NCBI GenBank assembly: GCA_041649715.1
Contig: JBAZMP010000001.1
Span: 18,741 to 82,740, forward strand
Length of the DNA stretch: 64,000 nucleotides
Direction: 5' to 3'
Source: Patescibacteria group bacterium
GTDB lineage: Bacteria; Patescibacteriota; Patescibacteriia; JAXHNJ01
The notes under the pieces are model-generated. The model was not told the DNA's origin, did no database searches, and was given only the letters and a program-made list of their open reading frames with translations. This document shows, in pieces, positions 13,324 to 54,724 of the stretch (position 1 is the first letter of the stretch; each line of letters begins with the position of its first letter). The translations under genes and the position numbers were made by a program.

Positions 13324-15516
13324 ATGGCTAAGGCAAAAACAAAAAAATTCGCCGTTTTATTATCTGTATTTGTAATTACTTTGCCGGTAATTACTTTTTT
13401 GTTTACGCCTTCGGTTTCCGCCAAAGATATCAGCCTGGATATTATCACGCGGGCGGAGTGGGAAGCGGATGAGAGCTGGCGCTTTAATTCAAAAAATCAG
13501 GAGATTTGGCCGGCCGAGTACGCCAAAGTGGAAAAAATCATTATTCACCACACGGCTGGTTCATTGGGCGGCGCTGACCCGGCGGCCATAATCCGCGGCA
13601 TTTATCACTGGCATGCCGTTTCTTTGGGCTGGGGCGACATCGGTTACAATTATCTGATAGATGAAAAAGGCAATGTCTACGAGGGCCGCTATGGCGGCGA
13701 CGGAGTGATGGGAGCGCACGCCTACAACGACAAAACCAACGCGGGTTACAACCGGGGCACGCTGGGGATCGCTATTTTGGGGAATTATCAGACTGACGTT
13801 TTGACGAACGCGGCCAAAGAAGCCCTGACGAATTTAATCGCCGTCAAGGCCCGCGATTTCGGCTTCGCCCCCGATGGCCGCAGTATTTTTAATGACGAGG
13901 ATCTGCTTAATCTTGTCGCTCACCGGGATATTGACAGCACCTTATGCCCGGGAAGAAATATCTATTCGCAGATGGATCAAATTCGGGAAAGCAGCCAGAT
14001 AAAATATAAGGGTTTGCCGGGCCTGCCGGCCGCCGACAAAGAGATGACCTATGTTGGACAAAGCGATGCGACTTTGACGCTCAGTCCGGGAGAAGAAAAA
14101 GAAATGTGGGTGGATTACCGTAATGACGGGCGCTCAACCTGGAAAAACTATGTAGCCAGTACGCCGTATTTGTCCGTTACGGAAACCAGCCCATTAAAAG
14201 CTTCAGATTGGCTTTCCGACACGCAAGCCGCGGGGCTTTCGACACCGAACGTGGCCAGCGGCCAAACCGGGCGGTTTGTCTTCAAGATCAAGGCCCCTAA
14301 CGATGAAATCCGTTTAGACCAAAGCTTTCGTATCATATGGGATGAAGAAGCAGTTCCTGGTACTTCCTTTAATCTTCATTTAGAAATAACCGGCTTTGAT
14401 TACGCGGCCAATGATTTAAAGCACGATATATTAAAGGCCACCTTTCCTAAGGTCACGAGGACGGTCACAATCAACTACCAGAATATCGGGTTAAAAACTT
14501 GGGCGAAAGACGATATTTATTTGGCCATCACGAACGAAAACGGCCGCCAAAGTTCCTATTATGATGCCGCTTGGCCAGACCAGGGAGGAAAGATCAGATT
14601 TAATGAAAGTGAAGTGAAAAGCCAAGGGCGAGCGACTTTTACCTTTAAAATGCATAGCCAGGGCGTTGACGCCTATAAGACCAAATTTTCTCTGAAAAAA
14701 TCCGACGGTACTACTCTGCCGGGCAGCGAAAAAATCGTGGCCACGCGTGTTGATTCCACTTATCAGGGCAAGATCGTTTCCCAAACGGTGCCGGTCGCCC
14801 TGCTTTCTAGTTGGCGGCCGACGGTGACCGTAAAGTTTGAAAACACCGGTTTATCAACCTGGGGAAAGAACATCGTGCTTAACGTGTATGACGGCGACTG
14901 GCGCAACAGCGCTTTTTCCCATCAGTCCTGGCCGACCGCTTGGGGACATTTTAATTTTCAGGAAACTCAAGTGAGGCCGGGCGAAACAGCCACCTTCCGG
15001 CTGACTCTTTATCCGCCCGCGCGGGCCGGCACATATTTTACCATTTTTAAACTGGAGAACACGACGTCGGTCAGTTTGCCCGTGCAAGGGGAGACTCGCC
15101 TGCTTATCCGGGTGGATGATGCCGGCTTGAAATTAGCGGAAAGCTATCAGGCGGAGTTTCTATCGGTTTCCGCCCCGCCCGCCTTGCGGCAGTATCAGCG
15201 CTTTACTAATGTCGTGAAAATAAAAAATACCGGCACGCAAACCTGGGGCAAGGACGTGGTTTTGAATATCTATGACGCGGACTGGCGGGAAACCTATTTC
15301 CGCGATGAATTGACCTGGCCGGCTTTCGAAGGCGGAATAACATTTTTAGAAGATCAGGTCCGGCCGGGCGAAACGGCCACTTTCCGTTTTATTTATCGGG
15401 CGCCGGTCAAAACCGGGCTTTACCGCAACCGGTTCATGCTTTCCATCGCCGGCCGGGAATATCTCGGGGTTCCCGGTTCGGAAAACTCAGCCTTGACCAG
15501 AGTTGATCCGATATAA
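13324..15516 (+). CDS. N-acetylmuramoyl-L-alanine amidase (PGRP/Amidase_2) with ~5 C-terminal Ig-like repeat modules
   Basis: 730 aa. IIHHTAGS...YHWHAVSLGWGDIGYNYLID amidase_2 signature. C-terminal repeats share WxxxxRPGETATFR with the SpoIID-like protein. Internal repeats are visible at the nucleotide level. Confidence 0.8.
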   Translation: MAKAKTKKFAVLLSVFVITLPVITFLFTPSVSAKDISLDIITRAEWEADESWRFNSKNQEIWPAEYAKVEKIIIHHTAGSLGGADPAAIIRGIYHWHAVSLGWGDIGYNYLIDEKGNVYEGRYGGDGVMGAHAYNDKTNAGYNRGTLGIAILGNYQTDVLTNAAKEALTNLIAVKARDFGFAPDGRSIFNDEDLLNLVAHRDIDSTLCPGRNIYSQMDQIRESSQIKYKGLPGLPAADKEMTYVGQSDATLTLSPGEEKEMWVDYRNDGRSTWKNYVASTPYLSVTETSPLKASDWLSDTQAAGLSTPNVASGQTGRFVFKIKAPNDEIRLDQSFRIIWDEEAVPGTSFNLHLEITGFDYAANDLKHDILKATFPKVTRTVTINYQNIGLKTWAKDDIYLAITNENGRQSSYYDAAWPDQGGKIRFNESEVKSQGRATFTFKMHSQGVDAYKTKFSLKKSDGTTLPGSEKIVATRVDSTYQGKIVSQTVPVALLSSWRPTVTVKFENTGLSTWGKNIVLNVYDGDWRNSAFSHQSWPTAWGHFNFQETQVRPGETATFRLTLYPPARAGTYFTIFKLENTTSVSLPVQGETRLLIRVDDAGLKLAESYQAEFLSVSAPPALRQYQRFTNVVKIKNTGTQTWGKDVVLNIYDADWRETYFRDELTWPAFEGGITFLEDQVRPGETATFRFIYRAPVKTGLYRNRFMLSIAGREYLGVPGSENSALTRVDPI

Positions 15517-15675: not shown

Positions 15676-15710
15676 TTGACAAGCAAGGAAAAGGGATATA
15701 AGTTATAGTA
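15676..15710 (+). promoter_or_regulatory. promoter TTGACA upstream of PheRS-like gene
   Basis: cctcTTGACAagcaaggaaaagggataTAAGTT. Confidence 0.35.
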
Positions 15711-15778
15711 TTCAGTTAAGAAGGCAAGATAAAAGAAGTAGTTCTTTAACAACCAAGATAGAAATGGAGGGTTTTATC

Positions 15779-16894
15779 ATGAAGAAAGAGATCATGCTGC
15801 CTGAGCGCCTGGCTGCGTCGTTGGCTATTTTGGACCTGACTGATCCAAAAAACGGCATCCATGCGATCAACTTAGTTGTGCAAAAAGTAAGACAGGCTTT
15901 AACAGTCGTCTACAAAGGCATTCCGGTTGAAGAGACCAGGAAAGATCCTATCGTCACCGTCAAAGAGAATTTTGATGACCTTCTTTTTCAAGAGGACAAT
16001 CTTGGTCGCTCTTCGCGCTATACGCGGTATGTGTCCGCGGATATGATTCTGCGAACGCATACCTCAGCGGCCGTTCCCGGCTGGCTGAATAAAGCGGTTC
16101 GCCAGGGAATCAACGATGCCATCATTGTCTTGCCCGGCATGTGTTACCGGAGAGATATCGTTGACAGGACGCATTGTGGAGAACCGCATCAGATGGATGT
16201 TTGGCGAGTAAAGCGCGGTGTTCCGCGGTTGGTACGTTCGGATTTAATCCGTTTGTTCGAGACTATTCTGAATAGCGTCGTACCGGAGTATCAGTATCGC
16301 GCTAATGATGTGGTGCATCCCTATACTGTTAACGGTCTTGAAATTGAGGTATTGGTGGACGGAAATTGGCTTGAAGTTCTTGAATGCGGCGAGATCCATC
16401 CTGCCATTCTGGGAAATGCCAATCTGGATCCGAGGGAGTATTCGGGTCTTGCCCTGGGCATGGGCTTGGATCGTCTCGTGATGATCATCAAAGGCATCGA
16501 TGATATCCGAGTCCTCCGTTCGGAAGACTCGCGTATTAAGCGCCAAATGGAAAACCTCGATAAGTACGTCAAGGTTTCTGATCAGCCAGCGGCTAAGCGG
16601 GTGCTTTCATACTCTACTTCAGCAGACAAGACAGAGGAGGATGTTTGTGAAGAAATCCGCGATGAACTCGGATTCGAGGCCTCATGCATTGAGGAGATTC
16701 AATATTCTGAGATTTTCTACGAGCAGTTGCCGGCAAAAGCACGCGAGAACTTAGGCATTCATCCTGATCAGAAGAATGTGGTCGTGACAATTTTGTTTCG
16801 TTCGCCAGAGGGCTCTCTTCAACGATCCATGGTTAACGAATGGATGCGACGTTTGTATCCGAAGCTAAACAAGGGGGACAGAGGATACATGTAA
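15779..16894 (+). CDS. monomeric (mitochondrial-type) phenylalanyl-tRNA synthetase-like protein: PheS-like class II core + C-terminal FDX-ACB anticodon-binding domain
   Basis: The ORF track starts at 15764, but GGAGGG lies 9 nt upstream of the ATG at 15779 (MKKEIM). Core motifs ILRTHTSAAV, GMCYRRDxxDRTH, WLEVLECGEIHPAIL, GLALGMGLDRLVMIIKGIDDIRVL closely match bacterial PheS. The ~130-aa C-terminal extension carries VVVTILFRSPEGSLQRSMVNEWMRRL, resembling the FDX-ACB domain. The HHPAR-equivalent reads NLGR. Confidence 0.65.
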   Translation: MKKEIMLPERLAASLAILDLTDPKNGIHAINLVVQKVRQALTVVYKGIPVEETRKDPIVTVKENFDDLLFQEDNLGRSSRYTRYVSADMILRTHTSAAVPGWLNKAVRQGINDAIIVLPGMCYRRDIVDRTHCGEPHQMDVWRVKRGVPRLVRSDLIRLFETILNSVVPEYQYRANDVVHPYTVNGLEIEVLVDGNWLEVLECGEIHPAILGNANLDPREYSGLALGMGLDRLVMIIKGIDDIRVLRSEDSRIKRQMENLDKYVKVSDQPAAKRVLSYSTSADKTEEDVCEEIRDELGFEASCIEEIQYSEIFYEQLPAKARENLGIHPDQKNVVVTILFRSPEGSLQRSMVNEWMRRLYPKLNKGDRGYM

Positions 16895-16915
16895 ACGATT
16901 AATCATTATTTCGAA

Positions 16916-16988
16916 GGGTTACTTGCATAATCTGCAGTAACCCTTTTTAATATTATAAAGAGGCCCCGCGACACCAGCGCCGCGGGGC
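16916..16988. terminator. pair of convergent intrinsic terminators
   Basis: First hairpin gggttacttgcataatctgcagtaaccc followed by T5. Second hairpin ggccccgcgacaccagcgccgcggggc, reading as the minus-strand terminator for the lysS-like gene. Confidence 0.5.
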
Positions 16989-16996
16989 TATTTAGC

Positions 16997-18445
16997 CTAG
17001 AAGACCGGAAATAACTCTACGTCACGTATGTCTTCCGTGTTGAGCAGAAGCATAAGGAGACGTTCTATTCCCATACCGATTCCTCGGCTCGGAGGAAGAC
17101 CGAATTTCATCGCACTTAATATGTCTTCGTTGATAACGTTGAGTTGAGTGCCTTTACGATAATTCAGCTGTTCTTTCATTCTTTGCCTTACAATGCCAGG
17201 ATCACGTTCCGGATTAACAATGTCGGCAACGAGCATTCCATTAATTACGAGAAGCGTTTCGTCAACGGTAGACATATCGTCGTTGAGTTTGTAAAGCGGG
17301 GATTGAGCGGCTGGTAGATTCCGGAGGAAGGCCGGCCCCGTGATTTTTGACATAACATAGGTATACAGGGCAGTTGCGATCGTATACTTGTTCACGACCG
17401 CCGGTAGCGGGATGCCCATTCTCATGGTCATGTTCGCGAGCAGTTCGATGGGACCATCCTCTTTATACACAAGACCCGTGTATTTTTGGATTTCGCCCCT
17501 AAAATCATAGGCAGGCCACTCATCGGAACAGTCAATCACTCCACCCGTTATCGGAAGTGTGGCAGAACCATAGAGTTGAACGAGGATTTCGCGTATCATG
17601 TCCCGCACCAGATCTTCCATTTTCTTCCGATCAGCGTACGCTTGGTACAGTTCCAAAATAGTGAATTGCGGGAGCATATCGGCCGTGGCGCCTTGATTTC
17701 GGAAGGATTTGCCGATTTCGAAAACCTTAGAAAAACCGGCAATCATTAACTTCCAAAGGAAAAGTTCAGATGTCACCCTGAGAAACATATCGTTGTCTGA
17801 TTCGACTACGTGCGTCACAAAAGGATCCGCTAGCCCTCCTTCAAAATTTTTCAGCAGTAGGGTTATGGGAGTTTCCTCATAACCCTTTTGGTGAAGAAAT
17901 TGCCTGATTGTCCGGATAACTAACGCGCATCTGCGAAAATGCAGCAGTTTTTCCGGATCCCTTATTAGTTGGAGATGCCTTTGGGTGTGCCAGTTTGTTT
18001 TCTTGTGGAAATCAACGTTAGTGTCGTATACATCGCCGACTGCCTTGGAGAGAAGTTCAATCTTTTTTCCGAGAAAAACAGGGTTGTTATCGACACGGAG
18101 TTTGGTCCCTTCAATCATCACAATATCACCGTAATGAATGGTCGTGTTTATGGTCCGGATATTTTCCGGTGTCCGCGTTAAATAAACCGGAATCGAAACC
18201 CCGTTACCCTCGATTCGCTCAAGGATGATGACGTCTTTTTTCTCAAGTTCTCCAAATAATCCGAACTTAGAAATTTCTCCTGTCCTGTCAGCGAGCATAA
18301 GCCTACCGACTAACACAATTTTCTCGCCGTAACCAACTGTGTGGAACTCTCCCGGTTCAATAGAAACTCTCGCCACCTCACGACGGTAAGCGAGAGCATC
18401 ATTGACGAGGGCATTCATCCTTTTTCTCTCACTTTTTCGAGCCAT
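16997..18445 (-). CDS. lysS: lysyl-tRNA synthetase, class II (divergent)
   Basis: 482 aa. N-terminal OB-fold region. Class IIb motifs FRNQGATADMLPQFTILELY and GMGIERLLMLL. Ends in a TAG stop. Promoter TTGACA-N17-TAAGTT on the minus strand at ~18519-18555. Confidence 0.7.
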   Translation of the reverse strand: MARKSERKRMNALVNDALAYRREVARVSIEPGEFHTVGYGEKIVLVGRLMLADRTGEISKFGLFGELEKKDVIILERIEGNGVSIPVYLTRTPENIRTINTTIHYGDIVMIEGTKLRVDNNPVFLGKKIELLSKAVGDVYDTNVDFHKKTNWHTQRHLQLIRDPEKLLHFRRCALVIRTIRQFLHQKGYEETPITLLLKNFEGGLADPFVTHVVESDNDMFLRVTSELFLWKLMIAGFSKVFEIGKSFRNQGATADMLPQFTILELYQAYADRKKMEDLVRDMIREILVQLYGSATLPITGGVIDCSDEWPAYDFRGEIQKYTGLVYKEDGPIELLANMTMRMGIPLPAVVNKYTIATALYTYVMSKITGPAFLRNLPAAQSPLYKLNDDMSTVDETLLVINGMLVADIVNPERDPGIVRQRMKEQLNYRKGTQLNVINEDILSAMKFGLPPSRGIGMGIERLLMLLLNTEDIRDVELFPVF

Positions 18446-18564
18446 GAGGCTAACCTCCTGTTATGGTTTTTGAATGTGCCGCAGAGAAATTTATTTTCTC
18501 TGTTTCTTGCCTTAACTTATACCGTTTTATCGAAAATGTCAAGGGTTACTCCAGAAAGCATTAT

Positions 18565-19101
18565 TTACCTTTTAAATACATCGTACTTAAAGTCCTTGTA
18601 GGTCATGGAAGGTCTTGGCCCCTTGCTGTTTTGATATTTGCCTTTGTATAAGATTATGTTTCCAAAGGGGACCCAGAAACTTACTTGAGCGATAAGAATG
18701 CCGGGATATAGGCGGACCGGAAGAGTGGCGTATAACTGAAATGTGGTTACTCCGTGAGAGCCTATATCGATCAAATCGGCCGTGACGTGCACAAAAAGGC
18801 CCATTCGAGCGGTGCCGGATTTACCGTGGATCAGCGGCACATAAAAATCACTCCCAATTCTTTCATTTGAATGGCCCAAGACAAACTCACCTTGTTTCAA
18901 AACCAAGCCGTCATTGGGGATTTTTATTTCTACGTAAGGAGTCTCAACTTTTGGGTCGATAATTTCGGCCTTATAGCGTATGATTGTTTCACCAAGAGAT
19001 AAATCGTAGGAATTAGTGGTCACGCGGTTTTCTATAAACGGGTTGATTTCAATTTTGCCGTTTTTCACCTCCTCAATAATTTTGTTTCCTGTTAATATCA
19101 T
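18565..19101 (-). CDS. dCTP deaminase-family protein (dUTPase-like fold), catalytic Glu replaced by Gln
   Basis: 178 aa. MILTGNKIIEEV...NPNSYDLSLG is a Dcd-like N-terminus. The conserved TLEL motif reads TFQL. Overlaps the upstream paralog by 29 nt. Confidence 0.7.
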   Translation of the reverse strand: MILTGNKIIEEVKNGKIEINPFIENRVTTNSYDLSLGETIIRYKAEIIDPKVETPYVEIKIPNDGLVLKQGEFVLGHSNERIGSDFYVPLIHGKSGTARMGLFVHVTADLIDIGSHGVTTFQLYATLPVRLYPGILIAQVSFWVPFGNIILYKGKYQNSKGPRPSMTYKDFKYDVFKR

Positions 19102-19612
19102 AATTTTTTTGATCGCCAGGCGTTAATGATTCTTGCGGGTGATTTAAAAACCCATAACGTCCGCAGTATTTCTTAAACAAACCGTAATTTTTCCAAAACG
19201 AAACTTGCCCGATAATCATCCCCGGGTATAATTTAATTGGTATGGTTGCGACCATTTCCAGAGTCCATTTATGCGTTGATGAGGTGTGGCCAAGATTTGC
19301 CGAGCATTGGAGAAAGAGGCCGTATCTTCCCAGAGAACTGCGACCAATGAGAGACATGGCATACTTCTGGCTGCCGATTACTTCGTAAGTTGTCGCCAAA
19401 TACATTTTTTTTGCCTCCAGGATATACCCTTCCCGGGGCATCTCAATCTCTTCAAAAAATGATTTATACCCATCAAATCTTTCAAAAACTTTCAATACGG
19501 GGCCGAGTCTGTAATTATAACTATTGGGATTAACTTGTTCGGTAGAAAAAGGTTTTATCGTAATATTGCCCCTTTTAACCTCGTCGTTAATTTTACTACC
19601 AGTGAGAATCAT
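19073..19612 (-). CDS. dCTP deaminase-family protein (catalytic Glu retained)
   Basis: 179 aa. MILTGSKINDEV...NPNSYNYRLG. WTLEM motif retains the catalytic Glu. Confidence 0.7.
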   Translation of the reverse strand: MILTGSKINDEVKRGNITIKPFSTEQVNPNSYNYRLGPVLKVFERFDGYKSFFEEIEMPREGYILEAKKMYLATTYEVIGSQKYAMSLIGRSSLGRYGLFLQCSANLGHTSSTHKWTLEMVATIPIKLYPGMIIGQVSFWKNYGLFKKYCGRYGFLNHPQESLTPGDQKNYDINRKQNY

Positions 19613-19617
19613 AAAGT

Positions 19618-20442
19618 TTAGAACAGTTCGGTAAAGCGGTTCGGGTATACTGTTTTTCTAAAGCGAAGAACTAACACGCTATATCTCTGGTAGGGTCGTA
19701 GATCATTCGACATTTTCTTCACCCCAAATAACCGGTCAAACATCGCCTGGCGCACTTTTTGATTCTTTATACTGTGCATGAGGCAGGCCCTCTCCGTTGT
19801 TGACTGGCAGTAACACCGGAGCTCATAATCGGTTTCCGGCACCAACGTATTACGATCCTCATAGATAATTTCAAACTTGTTAAATAGCGTCATTATTTCT
19901 TTGTATGTTTCATTTGTTGGTGTTATGTCAAAGACTTTCTGTGCTCGTTTGATAAGATGATTCGGGATTGTGCGGGTGACATAAAAAGGGGAAGCTAAAA
20001 TATATCCGCCATCATTGAGCATGCCGAGGCATCGGTTTATCATTTTTTCTGGGTTGGGAAAAAATTTCAGAGAAGCTCCAACTACTATGTGAGTAAATTT
20101 ACCGCGCGGTTTATAGCGGAAACCATCAGCTACCTTGTATATAAAATTTATTTTAGATGCGTAGTGTTTTTTATTGTAATTTGCCATTTCAATCGATTTC
20201 CTTGATAAGTCAAAACCTTCGCCCTGGCAACCCGTCAGCGTCGCTAATTCACGAGAGGAAAATCCGGTGCTGCAGGCAACCTCAAGCAAACGGGAATTTC
20301 GGTTCAAACGTGAGTAAACCGCCCATTTCGACAGGGTCGTATACGATCCGGGTAATACATTCCATTGATTGATGAAACCAACAAAGTCGGTGTAGGAAAA
20401 CTTTTTAATAGCCTCCGGTGTTATTTTTTGTCCGTTTTTCAT
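19618..20442 (-). CDS. class I SAM-dependent methyltransferase-fold protein
   Basis: 274 aa. Motif I LLEVACSTGFSS, acidic loop GFDLS. Start overlaps the upstream gene. Confidence 0.65.
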   Translation of the reverse strand: MKNGQKITPEAIKKFSYTDFVGFINQWNVLPGSYTTLSKWAVYSRLNRNSRLLEVACSTGFSSRELATLTGCQGEGFDLSRKSIEMANYNKKHYASKINFIYKVADGFRYKPRGKFTHIVVGASLKFFPNPEKMINRCLGMLNDGGYILASPFYVTRTIPNHLIKRAQKVFDITPTNETYKEIMTLFNKFEIIYEDRNTLVPETDYELRCYCQSTTERACLMHSIKNQKVRQAMFDRLFGVKKMSNDLRPYQRYSVLVLRFRKTVYPNRFTELF

Positions 20443-21697
20443 GTGTATATTTTAGACGATAAACCTTGGGGATGTTGTTTATAAATGTTTGCGCCAGTGA
20501 GTAAGTGAGCGCTCCCTGATTGGGTACGACGATAATATCCTTATCCCGCAGTTTTTTACCATAATAATAGTAACCCCATATATCCCATGTCGTGCACAGG
20601 TTGCCCCACATCTTGAATTTCCGTTCTCTTTTACTAGGATGAGAGAGATTTATTATAGGGAAATATTCAGTTTTGAATCTTTGCCAGCCGACCATATTGA
20701 CGCCACCGTTCAATATGCAATTCTTATCTTCCTTGATATCAGAAACACTTAATAGGATATGCATTGCCCCATTACAGATGTAACGACCGGGTTCAGATAG
20801 ATAGGTGGCATTGATTAACGGAGCTAGATATTTCTTGATGGCGTTACCGATGTTCTGAGCGTATTCTTCGATGGTGGAGGCTTGTCGTATTACATACTTT
20901 GGCCAACCCGATTTACTTTGCTTAATAATTCCTTCGTTCGCAGAAGATTCGAATCCGCCGCCGAAATCAATATATTTTATCTTGCCAAGCTGGTCGTCGG
21001 GAAAATTCCATTTTAAATAACTAGCCAAATCGCGGATTGTATCTCTGTAATAAGAACTGGTTTTGTTGCGAGATTGATGAAAATGGATGCCGTTTAAATC
21101 TAAAAAGGAATATCGGTTTGCCTCTTTCCAGAAATCCTTCAGTGATTTGAGGGGGATGCCGTATTTTGTCCAGTCCCCCTGTAAAGCCATATGGATACGA
21201 ACACCGCATTCAATTCTTTTTTTACGTTTATTCGCCAGCCGGCCTAGCCGTTTTAATTCATTGAAACTGTCTATATGGAGGCGTACTTTGTCGGCATGAT
21301 TCAGAGCCATTTTCAGATCATGGTAGCTTTTAGCCGGGCTGTAATAAACGATTTTTTTTGTCCCGGCTTTTAGTGCGATATTAAGTTCTCTGGCGCTCGC
21401 CACATCCAACCCCATGCCTCTTTTCACCGCCTCCCTGATGATATAGGGATGATGATTGAGTTTTAAGGCGTAATACGGCTGAAAATCCGGGATGTGTTTT
21501 TGGAAGGCGGTAATAAACGTTTTTATGTCTTTGTCCAGGGATTTTTGGTCATAAACATAAAAAGGTGTTTTATATTTATCGGCTAATTTAAAAAATTCAT
21601 TCCTCAGCAAAATAATTTTATTGACCACTGACAATATGTTTTTTGACACTGTATAGCGCGTCATTTTTCTAACCAGAAACGGCTTTATTAAAGACAA
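20405..21697 (-). CDS. PLP-dependent decarboxylase, fold III (Orn/DAP/Arg decarboxylase family)
   Basis: 430 aa. TPFYVYDQKSLDKDI..YALKLNHHPYIIREAVKRGMGLDVASARELNIALKAG matches the LysA/ODC N-terminal TIM barrel, including the PLP lysine. Confidence 0.75.
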   Translation of the reverse strand: MSLIKPFLVRKMTRYTVSKNILSVVNKIILLRNEFFKLADKYKTPFYVYDQKSLDKDIKTFITAFQKHIPDFQPYYALKLNHHPYIIREAVKRGMGLDVASARELNIALKAGTKKIVYYSPAKSYHDLKMALNHADKVRLHIDSFNELKRLGRLANKRKKRIECGVRIHMALQGDWTKYGIPLKSLKDFWKEANRYSFLDLNGIHFHQSRNKTSSYYRDTIRDLASYLKWNFPDDQLGKIKYIDFGGGFESSANEGIIKQSKSGWPKYVIRQASTIEEYAQNIGNAIKKYLAPLINATYLSEPGRYICNGAMHILLSVSDIKEDKNCILNGGVNMVGWQRFKTEYFPIINLSHPSKRERKFKMWGNLCTTWDIWGYYYYGKKLRDKDIIVVPNQGALTYSLAQTFINNIPKVYRLKYTHEKRTKNNTGGY

Positions 21698-22673
21698 TTT
21701 GGTCGTTGTTAAGTAATCCGGTCCCGCCGTTTGGGATAGTGATCATAGGATCGGAATGGCCAAAGTCAGCGTTATATAGGACAGGATACTGGACGCCAGA
21801 AAAATATCTATGCAACAATTCCTCGAATGAATCTTCCGGCGAGAATTGAGATTGCTCGGTAAAACGCCCGAACACTAAACCGGAGATTTTTTTGAACCAA
21901 CCGATTTGCTCGCCTTGGCATAAAAATCGGTCAACATGGGCCGGCGTGCTTGTTTCGTCTTCCTCGATAAAGAGAATTTTTCCGGTCATATCAGGCAGAT
22001 ATTCTGTGCCGTTCAGGATTAATAACGTCTGGAGGTTCCCGGCCACAATTTGTCCTTTCGCCTTCCCTTTTTTGAATATTATAATTCCCTCATTTTTCTT
22101 GTTAACCCGATGGTTATTGTCTTTCCTGATAAAATATAAGTCATCCGCATAATCAGGGGATGACTTAATAATTATTTTTTCTCTTGGAGTAATACAGATA
22201 TTATTCAAATAGTTCCAGCTATAGACAAATGGTTCCGGTTTGGCAAATGAAATCACGCACGGACCGGAAAACGTCACAAGGCCAGTTTTTTGAGTAATCG
22301 CAGTTGTTAAAGCGGTTACGTCCGAATAACCAATAAAGATTTTAGGGTGCATTTTGATCAGCTTGTAATCCAAGTGATCCAATAACTGGTTGGTATTAAA
22401 TCCGCCCCAGAAAGACATAATGCCGCCGACATCTTCCCGCTTTACGAAGTGATGAATATCATCGACGCGTAAAGAGATCGATCCGGCTGTATGCTTTTGG
22501 GTTAATTCTTTCATGGATTTGCCCTCTTCGATTTGAAATCCTTTCATTCGTAGATATTCATAGCCGCGCTGTATTACGTTTTCAGGACAGATACCTCTGA
22601 CCGGATCCGCCGGAGCGATAATCCCAATCTTTTTATTCTTATCCAGTTTTGGCGGTAGTATTCTCAGGCTCAT
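21669..22673 (-). CDS. peptidase S66 family (LD-carboxypeptidase / MccF-like)
   Basis: 334 aa. IGIIAPADP N-terminus. Nucleophile motif GYSDVTAL. C-terminal FGHSDP with a His. HVDRFL. Confidence 0.75.
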   Translation of the reverse strand: MSLRILPPKLDKNKKIGIIAPADPVRGICPENVIQRGYEYLRMKGFQIEEGKSMKELTQKHTAGSISLRVDDIHHFVKREDVGGIMSFWGGFNTNQLLDHLDYKLIKMHPKIFIGYSDVTALTTAITQKTGLVTFSGPCVISFAKPEPFVYSWNYLNNICITPREKIIIKSSPDYADDLYFIRKDNNHRVNKKNEGIIIFKKGKAKGQIVAGNLQTLLILNGTEYLPDMTGKILFIEEDETSTPAHVDRFLCQGEQIGWFKKISGLVFGRFTEQSQFSPEDSFEELLHRYFSGVQYPVLYNADFGHSDPMITIPNGGTGLLNNDQIVFNKAVSG

Positions 22674-40051: not shown

Positions 40052-40127
40052 TGGTGCGCCTGGGGGGATTCGAACCACCGACCTTCCGCTTATAAGGCGG
40101 ATGCTCTAACCATTGAGCTACAGGCGC
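40052..40127 (-). tRNA. tRNA with anticodon TAT (tRNA-Ile(UAU)-like), CCA encoded
   Basis: gcgcctg/tagctcaatggttagagc/tccgc-cttataa-gcgga/T-arm ggtgg-ttcgaat-ccccc (one U:C mismatch)/caggcgc-a-cca. Confidence 0.7.
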
Positions 40128-54551: not shown

Positions 54552-54627
54552 GTGGGCGTAGCTCAACGGTTAGAGCGCCTGACTCTAAATCAGGATGTTG
54601 TTGGTTCAAATCCAATCACCCACTCCA
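54552..54627 (+). tRNA. tRNA with anticodon CTA (amber-reading), CCA encoded
   Basis: gtgggcg/ta/gctc-aacggtta-gagc/g/cctga-CTCTAAA-tcagg/atgtt/gttgg-ttcaaat-ccaat/cacccac-t-cca. One C6:A67 mismatch in the acceptor stem. Confidence 0.7.
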
Positions 54628-54649
54628 GATTTTCTTGCTCTTTAGCGTT

Positions 54650-54724
54650 GTCCCAGTAGCTCAGCGGTAGAGCGCCTGACTCTAAATCAGGCAGTCGGAG
54701 GTTCAACTCCTCTCTGGGACTCCA
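54650..54724 (+). tRNA. tRNA with anticodon CTA (amber-reading), second copy, CCA encoded
   Basis: gtcccag/ta/gctc-agcggta-gagc/g/cctga-CTCTAAA-tcagg/cagtc/ggagg-ttcaact-cctct/ctgggac-t-cca. Perfect acceptor stem. D-arm and anticodon arm are identical to the first copy. Acceptor and T arms differ. Confidence 0.75.

Follow-up and report, generated by a model that had tools for sequence, protein, structure and literature searches.

Here we describe SrmL, a single-chain relative of the alpha subunit (PheS) of phenylalanyl-tRNA synthetase (PheRS), which is encoded in a 64,000-nucleotide stretch of a Patescibacteria group bacterium genome (contig JBAZMP010000001.1, positions 18,741 to 82,740), hereafter called the window. 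The gene lies at 15779..16894 on the forward strand, codes for 371 amino acids followed by a TAA stop, and was delimited from its open reading frame (ORF) and from the match of its product to NCBIfam NF051887. Our leading reading, which we hold tentatively, places SrmL in the PheRS lineage as a stand-alone tRNA ligase, made of a single chain and lacking an editing function, which would work alongside the canonical PheRS, probably on tRNA-Phe. The evidence behind it comes from domain architecture, predicted structure, conserved active-site residues and the position of phage homologues inside tRNA arrays.

The window protein matches the equivalog model NF051887, named 'PheS-related mystery ligase SrmL', with 407.8 bits against a cutoff of 300, its residues 24-371 aligning to positions 3-349 of the 349 in the model, and RefSeq has already applied the name SrmL to proteins of Hyalangium, Pyxidicoccus and Arenibaculum. 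The family to which it belongs has been catalogued before, without a described function, and is not itself new. Neither 'SrmL' nor 'mystery ligase' was found in the literature searched, which also held nothing relevant on FDX-ACB PheRS paralogues or on aminoacyl-tRNA synthetase (aaRS) paralogues of the Candidate Phyla Radiation (CPR), and a 2022 review of aaRS duplications leaves PheRS paralogues unmentioned. From 58 members of the family, belonging to CPR, Proteobacteria, Actinomycetes and Myxococcota, we derived a set of signature residues (R77, Y81, R124, R125, D140, W142, H180, Y182, T183, E199, E202, C203, A225, R232, E305, N333, R341 and Y360), which are invariant or nearly so across those members and are all present in the window protein. 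The protein fails the archaeal PheS model, and the models for PylRS and SepRS are unmatched as well (PylS_Cterm 13.5 bits against 178; SepS 19.2 bits against 381). A role in anti-phage defence was considered and rejected, as PADLOC gave no match for SrmL.

A first-pass annotation of this DNA had described the ORF as a bacterial single-chain protein composed of a PheS core and an FDX-ACB domain, resembling the mitochondrial enzyme, and this core claim is supported by domain searches, by the architecture of the family and by structure prediction combined with a fold search. The class II (PheS-type) catalytic core occupies 15875..16549 (+), residues ~33-257 of the 371-amino-acid protein, with PGMCYRRD..HQMD as motif 2 and GMGLDRL as motif 3, and Pfam tRNA-synt_2d (PF01409) was found at residues 38-262 of the 376-amino-acid ORF (1.9e-36). 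The peptides quoted in that annotation, WLEVLECGEIHPAIL, GMGLDRLVMIIKGIDDIRVL and VVVTILFRSPEGSLQRSMVNEWMRRL, are all present in the protein, but WLEVLECGEIHPAIL is not motif 2, which corresponds to PGMCYRRD...HQMD. An FDX-ACB-like (ferredoxin-fold) domain follows at 16577..16870 (+), residues ~267-364, and was placed by a sub-threshold PF03147 match, by profile alignment and by the structural model, its canonical last strand being unmatched. On the window protein PF03147 reaches 17.2 bits against a gathering threshold of 31.1 and covers profile positions 1-86 of 94, with the last 8 unmatched, and precomputed domain lists assign the same domain to many family members, including more divergent ones. 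The proposed resemblance of the C-terminal extension (~100 residues) to FDX-ACB therefore holds on three counts: PF03147 in the relatives, profile alignment, and superposition of the model on mitochondrial PheRS. The N-terminal coiled coil of PheS is missing, as had been proposed, since the core begins after only ~30 residues, in which the model places nothing but short helices. No pheT follows the gene either; neither pheS nor pheT was found in the 64-kb window, which is part of a 608-kb contig.

An AlphaFold2 model built from the alignment of the 58 family sequences has a mean predicted local distance difference test score (pLDDT) of 94.6 and a predicted template modelling score (pTM) of 0.90. 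When this model was compared with the PDB by Foldseek, the top seven matches were all human mitochondrial PheRS, and the match to 3CMQ has an E-value of 1.4e-28, a TM score of 0.77 (query-normalised) and a root-mean-square deviation (rmsd) of 3.4 A over 381 columns. The model is nearer to the closed state than to the tRNA-bound open state of 3TUP (rmsd 17.9), and its C-terminal domain has the secondary structure beta-alpha-beta-beta-alpha. Bacterial PheS chains match over ~235-270 columns, in the core only (rmsd ~2 A over ~235 residues). The family profile gives the same ranking, with mitochondrial PheRS as its best solved sequence match (136 bits; the best bacterial PheS reaches 126) and an alignment that extends into the anticodon-binding domain. 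The fold match and the profile alignment together therefore show that the reading of a mitochondrial-like architecture is correct.

Much of the catalytic apparatus of PheRS is retained in SrmL. With the alignment registered on E. coli PheS numbering, in which T251 and A294 land as expected, no variation is seen among the 58 members at motif 2 Arg124, motif 3 Arg232, Gln138, Glu199 or Thr183 and Ala225 of the pocket (R124, R232, T183 and A225 corresponding to E. coli R195, R301, T251 and A294), and the THTS element is conserved across them. The FHQxE element reads EPHQMD in the window protein, HQ alone being kept throughout the family. Inside the pocket F-P-F is changed to H-P-Y and G-C-G to E-C-G. 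Human mitochondrial PheRS is canonical at every active-site position changed in SrmL. In human cytosolic PheRS alpha (3L4G) the places of H-P-Y-T and E-C-G are taken by N-P-Y-T and G-N-S-G, and these two changes are therefore within the range of genuine PheRS. For that reason the changes from FPF to HPY and from Gly to E202 were withdrawn as proof of a pocket for something other than phenylalanine, and the amino-acid specificity of SrmL is beyond what its sequence can decide. The length of the motif-2 loop (one residue), considered as a synapomorphy with mitochondrial PheRS, was likewise dropped, as Thermus PheS has a loop of the same length.

The family is widespread among bacteria. Patescibacteria are rich in SrmL, with at least 120 clusters at 56-100% identity among the matches listed, and outside CPR it occurs at ~38-44% identity in many Lentzea and in Rhizobium tropici, Myxococcus, Polyangiaceae, Gemmatimonadota, Kribbella, Reinekea and Arenibaculum. 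When 1.84 billion representatives were searched exhaustively with the profile, 446 proteins reached E <= 1e-30 and at least 150 scored above 200 bits. Outside CPR the gene stands alone as a unit, preceded by a gap of 250-400 bp and usually followed by a convergent gene, and no operon partner conserved across the family was found among the cellular loci compared, as expected for a self-sufficient enzyme. Three CPR loci carry a second, divergent copy (L005:16441-17700, L007:6778-7998 and L011:11252-12379, with NF051887 scores of 372, 361 and 305 bits), which shares ~40% identity with the first and lies a few kb away from it; the second copies in L005 and L007 keep the motif-2 Phe and have EAGL in place of ECGE.

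Homologues of SrmL are also encoded by huge phages. A tblastn search of annotated phage genomes detected a full-length SrmL in LR745206.1, an 'uncultured phage' of 635 kb, with 27 of 30 signature residues and a family-profile score of 469 bits, and five more were found in IMG/VR on contigs of 415, 508, 517, 578 and 145 kb. The six phage proteins score 395-532 bits against the family profile and, among 32 signature positions, retain 26-30; their identity is 39-67% among themselves and 37-47% to the window protein. A seventh viral contig (L174) was left uncounted, since it has a tmRNA gene of the ARAGORN asterisk kind and may be cellular DNA. Huge phages are described as carrying up to 67 tRNAs and 15 aaRS genes (PMC7162821), and in three of the six phage genomes SrmL lies inside arrays of 25, 28 and 29 tRNA genes (regions L087:9708-11308, L091:9800-11077 and L088:1565-11083). 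The tRNAs that flank SrmL on both sides in L087 are the only two tRNA-Phe(GAA) among 25 (label-shuffling probability ~0.0035), and in L091 the nearest upstream tRNA is a tRNA-Val and the next one, ~130 bp upstream, is a tRNA-Phe(GAA). In L088 SrmL comes directly after a HisRS-like gene and SerRS, with four tRNA-Ser genes immediately before SerRS, an internal control indicating that phage aaRS genes adjoin their cognate tRNAs, and interleaved tRNA-His and tRNA-Phe genes are located 8 kb upstream. On the 517-kb phage contig (L089:8889-11140), the stop of a PNKP-type polynucleotide kinase-phosphatase gene (HAD_PNKP plus P-loop kinase) overlaps the start of SrmL, which suggests that SrmL is co-expressed with RNA or tRNA repair. 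We consider the position in phage tRNA arrays the strongest indication that SrmL acts on tRNA. As a separate observation, among the tRNA-His and tRNA-Phe genes of L088 lies a tRNA-like gene (L088:1820-1894) whose anticodon loop is 8 nt long ('ggaa'), reminiscent of a frameshift-suppressor tRNA.

In the mechanism that we propose, the class IIc core of SrmL would bind ATP and an aromatic, Phe-like amino acid and would form the aminoacyl-adenylate, after which the FDX-ACB domain would swing from the predicted closed state to the open state and the amino acid would be passed to the 3' end of the bound tRNA, most probably tRNA-Phe(GAA). SrmL would do so without an editing domain and as a paralogue alongside the canonical PheS/PheT, not as a substitute for them. 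The analysis establishes the fold, the domain architecture, the conserved adenylation residues, membership of the SrmL family, the coexistence with canonical pheS in a related genome and the phage tRNA-array position, and it is in going beyond them that we infer a tRNA as the acceptor, tRNA-Phe as that tRNA and phenylalanine as the amino acid.

A number of observations weigh against this proposal, some of them in the active site and in the anticodon-binding domain. The first-pass annotation had noticed that the HPxR element reads NLGR and had warned that specificity or activity may differ from PheRS. The sequence confirms the former and the warning is justified, since HPxR is lost family-wide with only its Arg kept (HHPAR to xxxGR; DNLGR in the window protein) and the protein falls below both PheRS equivalog models, that of PheS (TIGR00468, 107.6 bits against 237.45) and that of mitochondrial PheRS (TIGR00469, 138.4 bits against 258.35). 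Furthermore, the adenine-stacking Phe is replaced by Pro136, the Glu that binds the alpha-amino group (E. coli Glu210) by Asp140, and Glu202 is specific to the SrmL family; together with the loss of HPxR, these features set SrmL apart from every characterised PheRS. Human mitochondrial PheRS reads G34 by means of Asp364, which is essential, Phe366, which stacks, Ser375 and Arg414 (PMC7540514). Three of these four contacts were mapped onto SrmL. In the profile alignment the Asp364 column (SrmL 310) contains S, Q, E or G and never Asp, the Phe366 column (SrmL 312) contains T, I, V, W or S, and the position of Arg414, mapped with less certainty through the C-terminal G-x motif, is Y, W or F in SrmL; to this is added the last FDX-ACB strand, which the Pfam profile does not match. 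SrmL has instead invariant residues of its own in this domain (E305, G326, N333, R341 and Y360, with Q331 nearly invariant). The FDX-ACB fold of SrmL is thus kept under selection, but PheRS-style recognition of G34 is not.

Other difficulties come from genomic context. A canonical pheS (TIGR00468, 262 bits against 237) is convergent to SrmL in the CPR locus L014, where SrmL is therefore a paralogue and not a replacement, and with such coexistence and with hosts of large genome size a plain second PheRS looks redundant. The paired divergent copies hint at diversified specificity, and 'mystery ligase' is the label that the curators of NCBI themselves chose for the family. No tRNA is found within 10 kb of SrmL in 50 genome loci, and the 80 metagenome loci hold only 3 tRNAs, which are unrelated; a dedicated tRNA beside cellular SrmL was accordingly rejected over ~130 loci. 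The long upstream gaps were also searched for a T-box or riboswitch that might reveal the ligand, and none was detected, either in 9 loci at Rfam gathering scores or in the surroundings of the window gene at E <= 1. Finally, the flanking tRNA-Phe genes come from a single phage lineage (L087 and L091, 67% identical), and because of this the phage context points to tRNA-Phe in a way that is suggestive, not conclusive.

An alternative is that SrmL is a neofunctionalised class IIc synthetase, one that charges tRNA-Phe or another tRNA with an amino acid other than phenylalanine. PylRS and SepRS are class IIc precedents, derived from the same PheRS-related stock and acting on new substrates. Invariant, family-specific changes ring the substrate site of SrmL (H180, Y182, E202, D140, R83, Y81 and Y84), the residues that read G34 have been swapped for another invariant set (E305, Q331, N333, R341 and Y360), two divergent paralogues occur together in L005, L007 and L011, the family coexists with canonical PheRS, and this genome has two tRNAs with a CUA anticodon. 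However, the universal pocket residues Thr183 and Ala225 are kept, HPYT and ECG are within genuine PheRS variation, no special tRNA accompanies SrmL in ~130 cellular loci, and the tRNAs that flank the phage genes are ordinary tRNA-Phe(GAA). The family is also present in Rhizobium, Lentzea and Myxococcota, in which recoding is not known, and TAG is a normal, rare stop in the window, where it ends 5 of 52 long ORFs and no genes appear to be split by it. We consider such a changed amino-acid specificity unlikely.

A second possibility, to which we give a similarly low likelihood, is that SrmL is a tRNA-independent amino-acid ligase, which would form the aminoacyl-adenylate but transfer the amino acid to some other acceptor (for example a small molecule, a cell-wall precursor, or a protein, carrier proteins included) and would use FDX-ACB as a docking module. 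Ligation of this kind has precedents in EpmA/PoxA, in the SerRS-like amino acid:carrier-protein ligases and in AsnA. The loss of the mitochondrial-type anticodon contacts would fit such a role, and so would part of the surroundings of the gene: decarboxylases dependent on pyridoxal phosphate (PLP), of the ornithine/diaminopimelate (DAP) type or of group II, recur nearby without forming an operon (in the window, L020, L081 and L082), a radical-SAM/SPASM protein occurs with an amidohydrolase and a GNAT protein in six CPR loci, and an Amidase_2 gene is upstream of SrmL in the window and in Hyalangium. However, none of these is a family-wide partner, the neighbours are mostly convergent or divergent and not co-transcribed, the RNA-binding FDX-ACB fold is strongly conserved, and the phage copies have tRNAs, aaRS genes and an RNA repair enzyme for neighbours in place of metabolic genes.

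It is improbable that this reduced CPR genome relies on SrmL as its only housekeeping PheRS, with PheS/PheT replaced as in mitochondria. The window has neither pheS nor pheT, CPR genomes are strongly reduced, and the mitochondrial-type architecture suffices for PheRS function in organelles (PMC7540514), but the window represents 64 kb of a 608-kb contig, L014 has its canonical pheS right beside SrmL (262 bits against 237), some CPR genomes have two copies of SrmL, and PheS/PheT are expected in the non-CPR carriers with large genomes. About as improbable is a non-catalytic or regulatory role comparable to that of HisZ, in which SrmL would sense a tRNA or an amino acid without ligation. The replacement of the adenine-stacking Phe by Pro136, the loss of HPxR and scores below all PheRS cutoffs would agree with it, but the arginines of motifs 2 and 3, Gln138, Asp140 and Glu199 are invariant over distant lineages and phages, the pattern expected of an active enzyme, and the second paralogues keep Phe at the position of Pro136. 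Most remote of all is the idea that SrmL, as a synthetase of PheRS descent, is naturally orthogonal and has an amino-acid and tRNA specificity of its own, by which it could serve the tandem CUA tRNAs at 54552-54724 in a new natural code expansion like that of PylRS/tRNA-Pyl or in conditional read-through.

The start of the gene could be placed with some precision. Read from its first ATG, the listed ORF spans 15764..16894 (+) and codes for 376 amino acids. A Shine-Dalgarno sequence GGAGG, read directly at 15766..15770 (+), is located 8 nt 5' of the ATG at 15779 and supports this start over the one at 15764. The choice of 15779 agrees with the first-pass annotation and is borne out by the homologues as well, since the close ones all start with MKKEI and the NCBI protein of this metagenome-assembled genome (P0001, 'hypothetical protein WC528_00120', Patescibacteria group bacterium, 608,530-bp contig) has 371 amino acids and is 100% identical to the window SrmL. 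A promoter specific to the gene had also been proposed and was not confirmed: the candidate at 15676..15702 (+), read by eye, has a perfect -35 TTGACA (15676-15681) but a 15-nt spacer and a weak -10 (TATAAG, 15697-15702), and a consensus promoter scan made no call upstream of SrmL.

Past the 3' end, the expected convergent termination was confirmed, with each of the two convergent genes having its own hairpin. A direct reading places a terminator-like hairpin of 9 bp (AGGGTTACT / AGTAACCCT) followed by a T-run at 16915..16948 (+) (hairpin 16915-16944), 21 nt past the SrmL stop, which is missing from the terminator scan because its 12-nt loop exceeds the limit of the scan. A GC-rich 11-bp hairpin at 16963..16988 (-), supported by the terminator scan and by the sequence, ends the convergent LysRS-like gene at 16997..18445 (-) and is not part of SrmL; the tail-to-tail pairing of the two genes is as originally described. 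The same cannot be said of the GC-richer patch in which SrmL was thought to sit. The gene has 48.7% GC and the window 45.1 +/- 4.3%; segments of the same size reach the value of the gene in 20% of cases, and gyrA and ftsH are at 50%. A horizontally acquired GC island is therefore not supported.

Across the convergent border lies a block of co-oriented genes (16997-22673, -) that encodes an LD-carboxypeptidase (S66), a LysA-like PLP decarboxylase, an S-adenosylmethionine (SAM)-dependent methyltransferase, two dCTP-deaminase-like proteins from tandem genes and, last, the LysRS-like protein. This block travels with SrmL in only 6-7 close CPR genomes of 79 loci (L002, L003, L006, L008, L009, L010 and partly L012) and was therefore treated as local synteny, the LysRS-like gene being rejected as a functional partner. 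It could represent a pathway for peptidoglycan or DAP-to-lysine salvage or modification; its LysA-like decarboxylase (20405-21697) scores 141 bits against 298. The LysRS-like protein is full-length (482 amino acids), yet with 264 bits against 468 it reaches none of the LysRS cutoffs. In an alignment to a solved LysRS, the conserved block ...FELFIxGREhANAFTELNDP... reads ...TLLVINGMLVADIVNPERDP... in this protein, with several acidic and Asn residues gone that in LysRS bind ATP/Mg2+ and lysine. The gene may be a neofunctionalised paralogue and not the housekeeping LysRS. The methyltransferase (19618-20442, -) has a weak match to PADLOC mad2 of the 'mads' candidate defence system (42 bits, 9.8e-12), which is probably generic methyltransferase similarity.

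Other neighbours recur near SrmL in part of the family. A radical-SAM/SPASM gene adjoins it in six CPR loci (L001:11236-13833, L004:9538-10581, L007:5423-6469, L015:11189-12429, L017:106-2194 and L035:5800-9719), convergent or divergent to SrmL depending on the locus; its product is AhbD/NirJ-like and below all cutoffs, and it is accompanied by Amidohydro_2 in L001, L017 and L035 and by a small GNAT protein in L001, L015 and L035. PLP decarboxylases of two unrelated folds are found near SrmL in the window (20405-21697), L020:11040-12419, L081:11505-12893 and L082:7164-8693. In L020, an actinomycete locus, a true lysA (429 bits) overlaps the 3' end of SrmL, and the enzymes of L081 and L082, which are Myxococcota-type contigs, belong to PF00282. 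This recurrence could be due to chance and does not amount to a family-wide partner. Upstream of SrmL in the window, the gene at 13324-15516 (+) encodes a secreted-looking protein of 730 amino acids, in which an N-acetylmuramoyl-L-alanine amidase domain is combined with Ig-like domains of the N_BRCA1_IG type in several repeats, and in Hyalangium (L080) a smaller Amidase_2/PG_binding gene is upstream of SrmL.

The tRNA genes of the window include two in tandem with the amber-reading anticodon CUA, at 54552-54627 (+) and 54650-54724 (+). Both encode their CCA end, have U73 as discriminator and a canonical C-U-CUA-A-A loop, score 69-70 bits with the Rfam tRNA model and are labelled 'tRNA-Pyl' by ARAGORN, and they sit between a response-regulator gene and smc, a housekeeping and not a prophage context. 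A tRNA-Ile with anticodon UAU (tat) at 40052-40127 (-) adjoins a tRNA-Val(GAC); in most bacteria AUA is decoded by a lysidine-modified CAU tRNA.

SrmL is a strongly conserved and catalytically intact-looking relative of PheRS that is found in CPR, in soil bacteria and in huge phages, and that has a database name and no described function. Paralogues of aaRS have repeatedly brought new biology, as exemplified by PylRS, SepRS, EpmA and GluQRS. If SrmL proves to be a PheRS made from one gene and free of editing, prokaryotes would have in it their first counterpart of the mitochondrial enzyme, with a bearing on the origin of the latter; it would be a compact aaRS used by phages, and it would be a potential second source of Phe-tRNA in bacteria, possibly insensitive to inhibitors or stress. 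The SrmL lineage, with its representatives in Alphaproteobacteria and phages, may even be the prokaryotic source of the monomeric mitochondrial PheRS, a reading that is less radical than code expansion but likewise remote. If another specificity is true, SrmL would be a candidate for a new aaRS/tRNA pair.

Among known systems, SrmL belongs to the same subclass (class IIc) as PylRS and SepRS, but it has no specific similarity to either of them, the tRNA-binding domains differ and cellular SrmL has no dedicated tRNA beside it. In common with the aaRS of huge phages, its homologues in phages with genomes of 415-635 kb occur in tRNA arrays and near genes for SerRS and a HisRS-like protein, which fits the repertoire described for such phages (PMC7162821), whereas the window SrmL is chromosomal and is found among housekeeping genes of Patescibacteria. 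With bacterial PheS it shares the class IIc fold, motifs 2 and 3, THTS and the Thr and Ala of the pocket; unlike PheS, which is part of an (alpha-beta)2 enzyme, it has neither an N-terminal coiled coil nor a PheT partner, and carries FDX-ACB, which in bacteria is a domain of PheT. The closest comparison is with mitochondrial PheRS. SrmL is ~24% identical to it, is without its ~35-residue insertion after motif 2, and does not have its HPSR element, the Phe and Glu of FHQLE, the FPF pocket or the G34 contacts Asp364, Phe366 and Arg414 (contacts from PMC7540514). Even so, like the human mitochondrial enzyme (FARS2; 3CMQ, 3TUP), SrmL is a single chain that combines a PheS-type core with a C-terminal FDX-ACB domain and does without a coiled coil or an editing domain.

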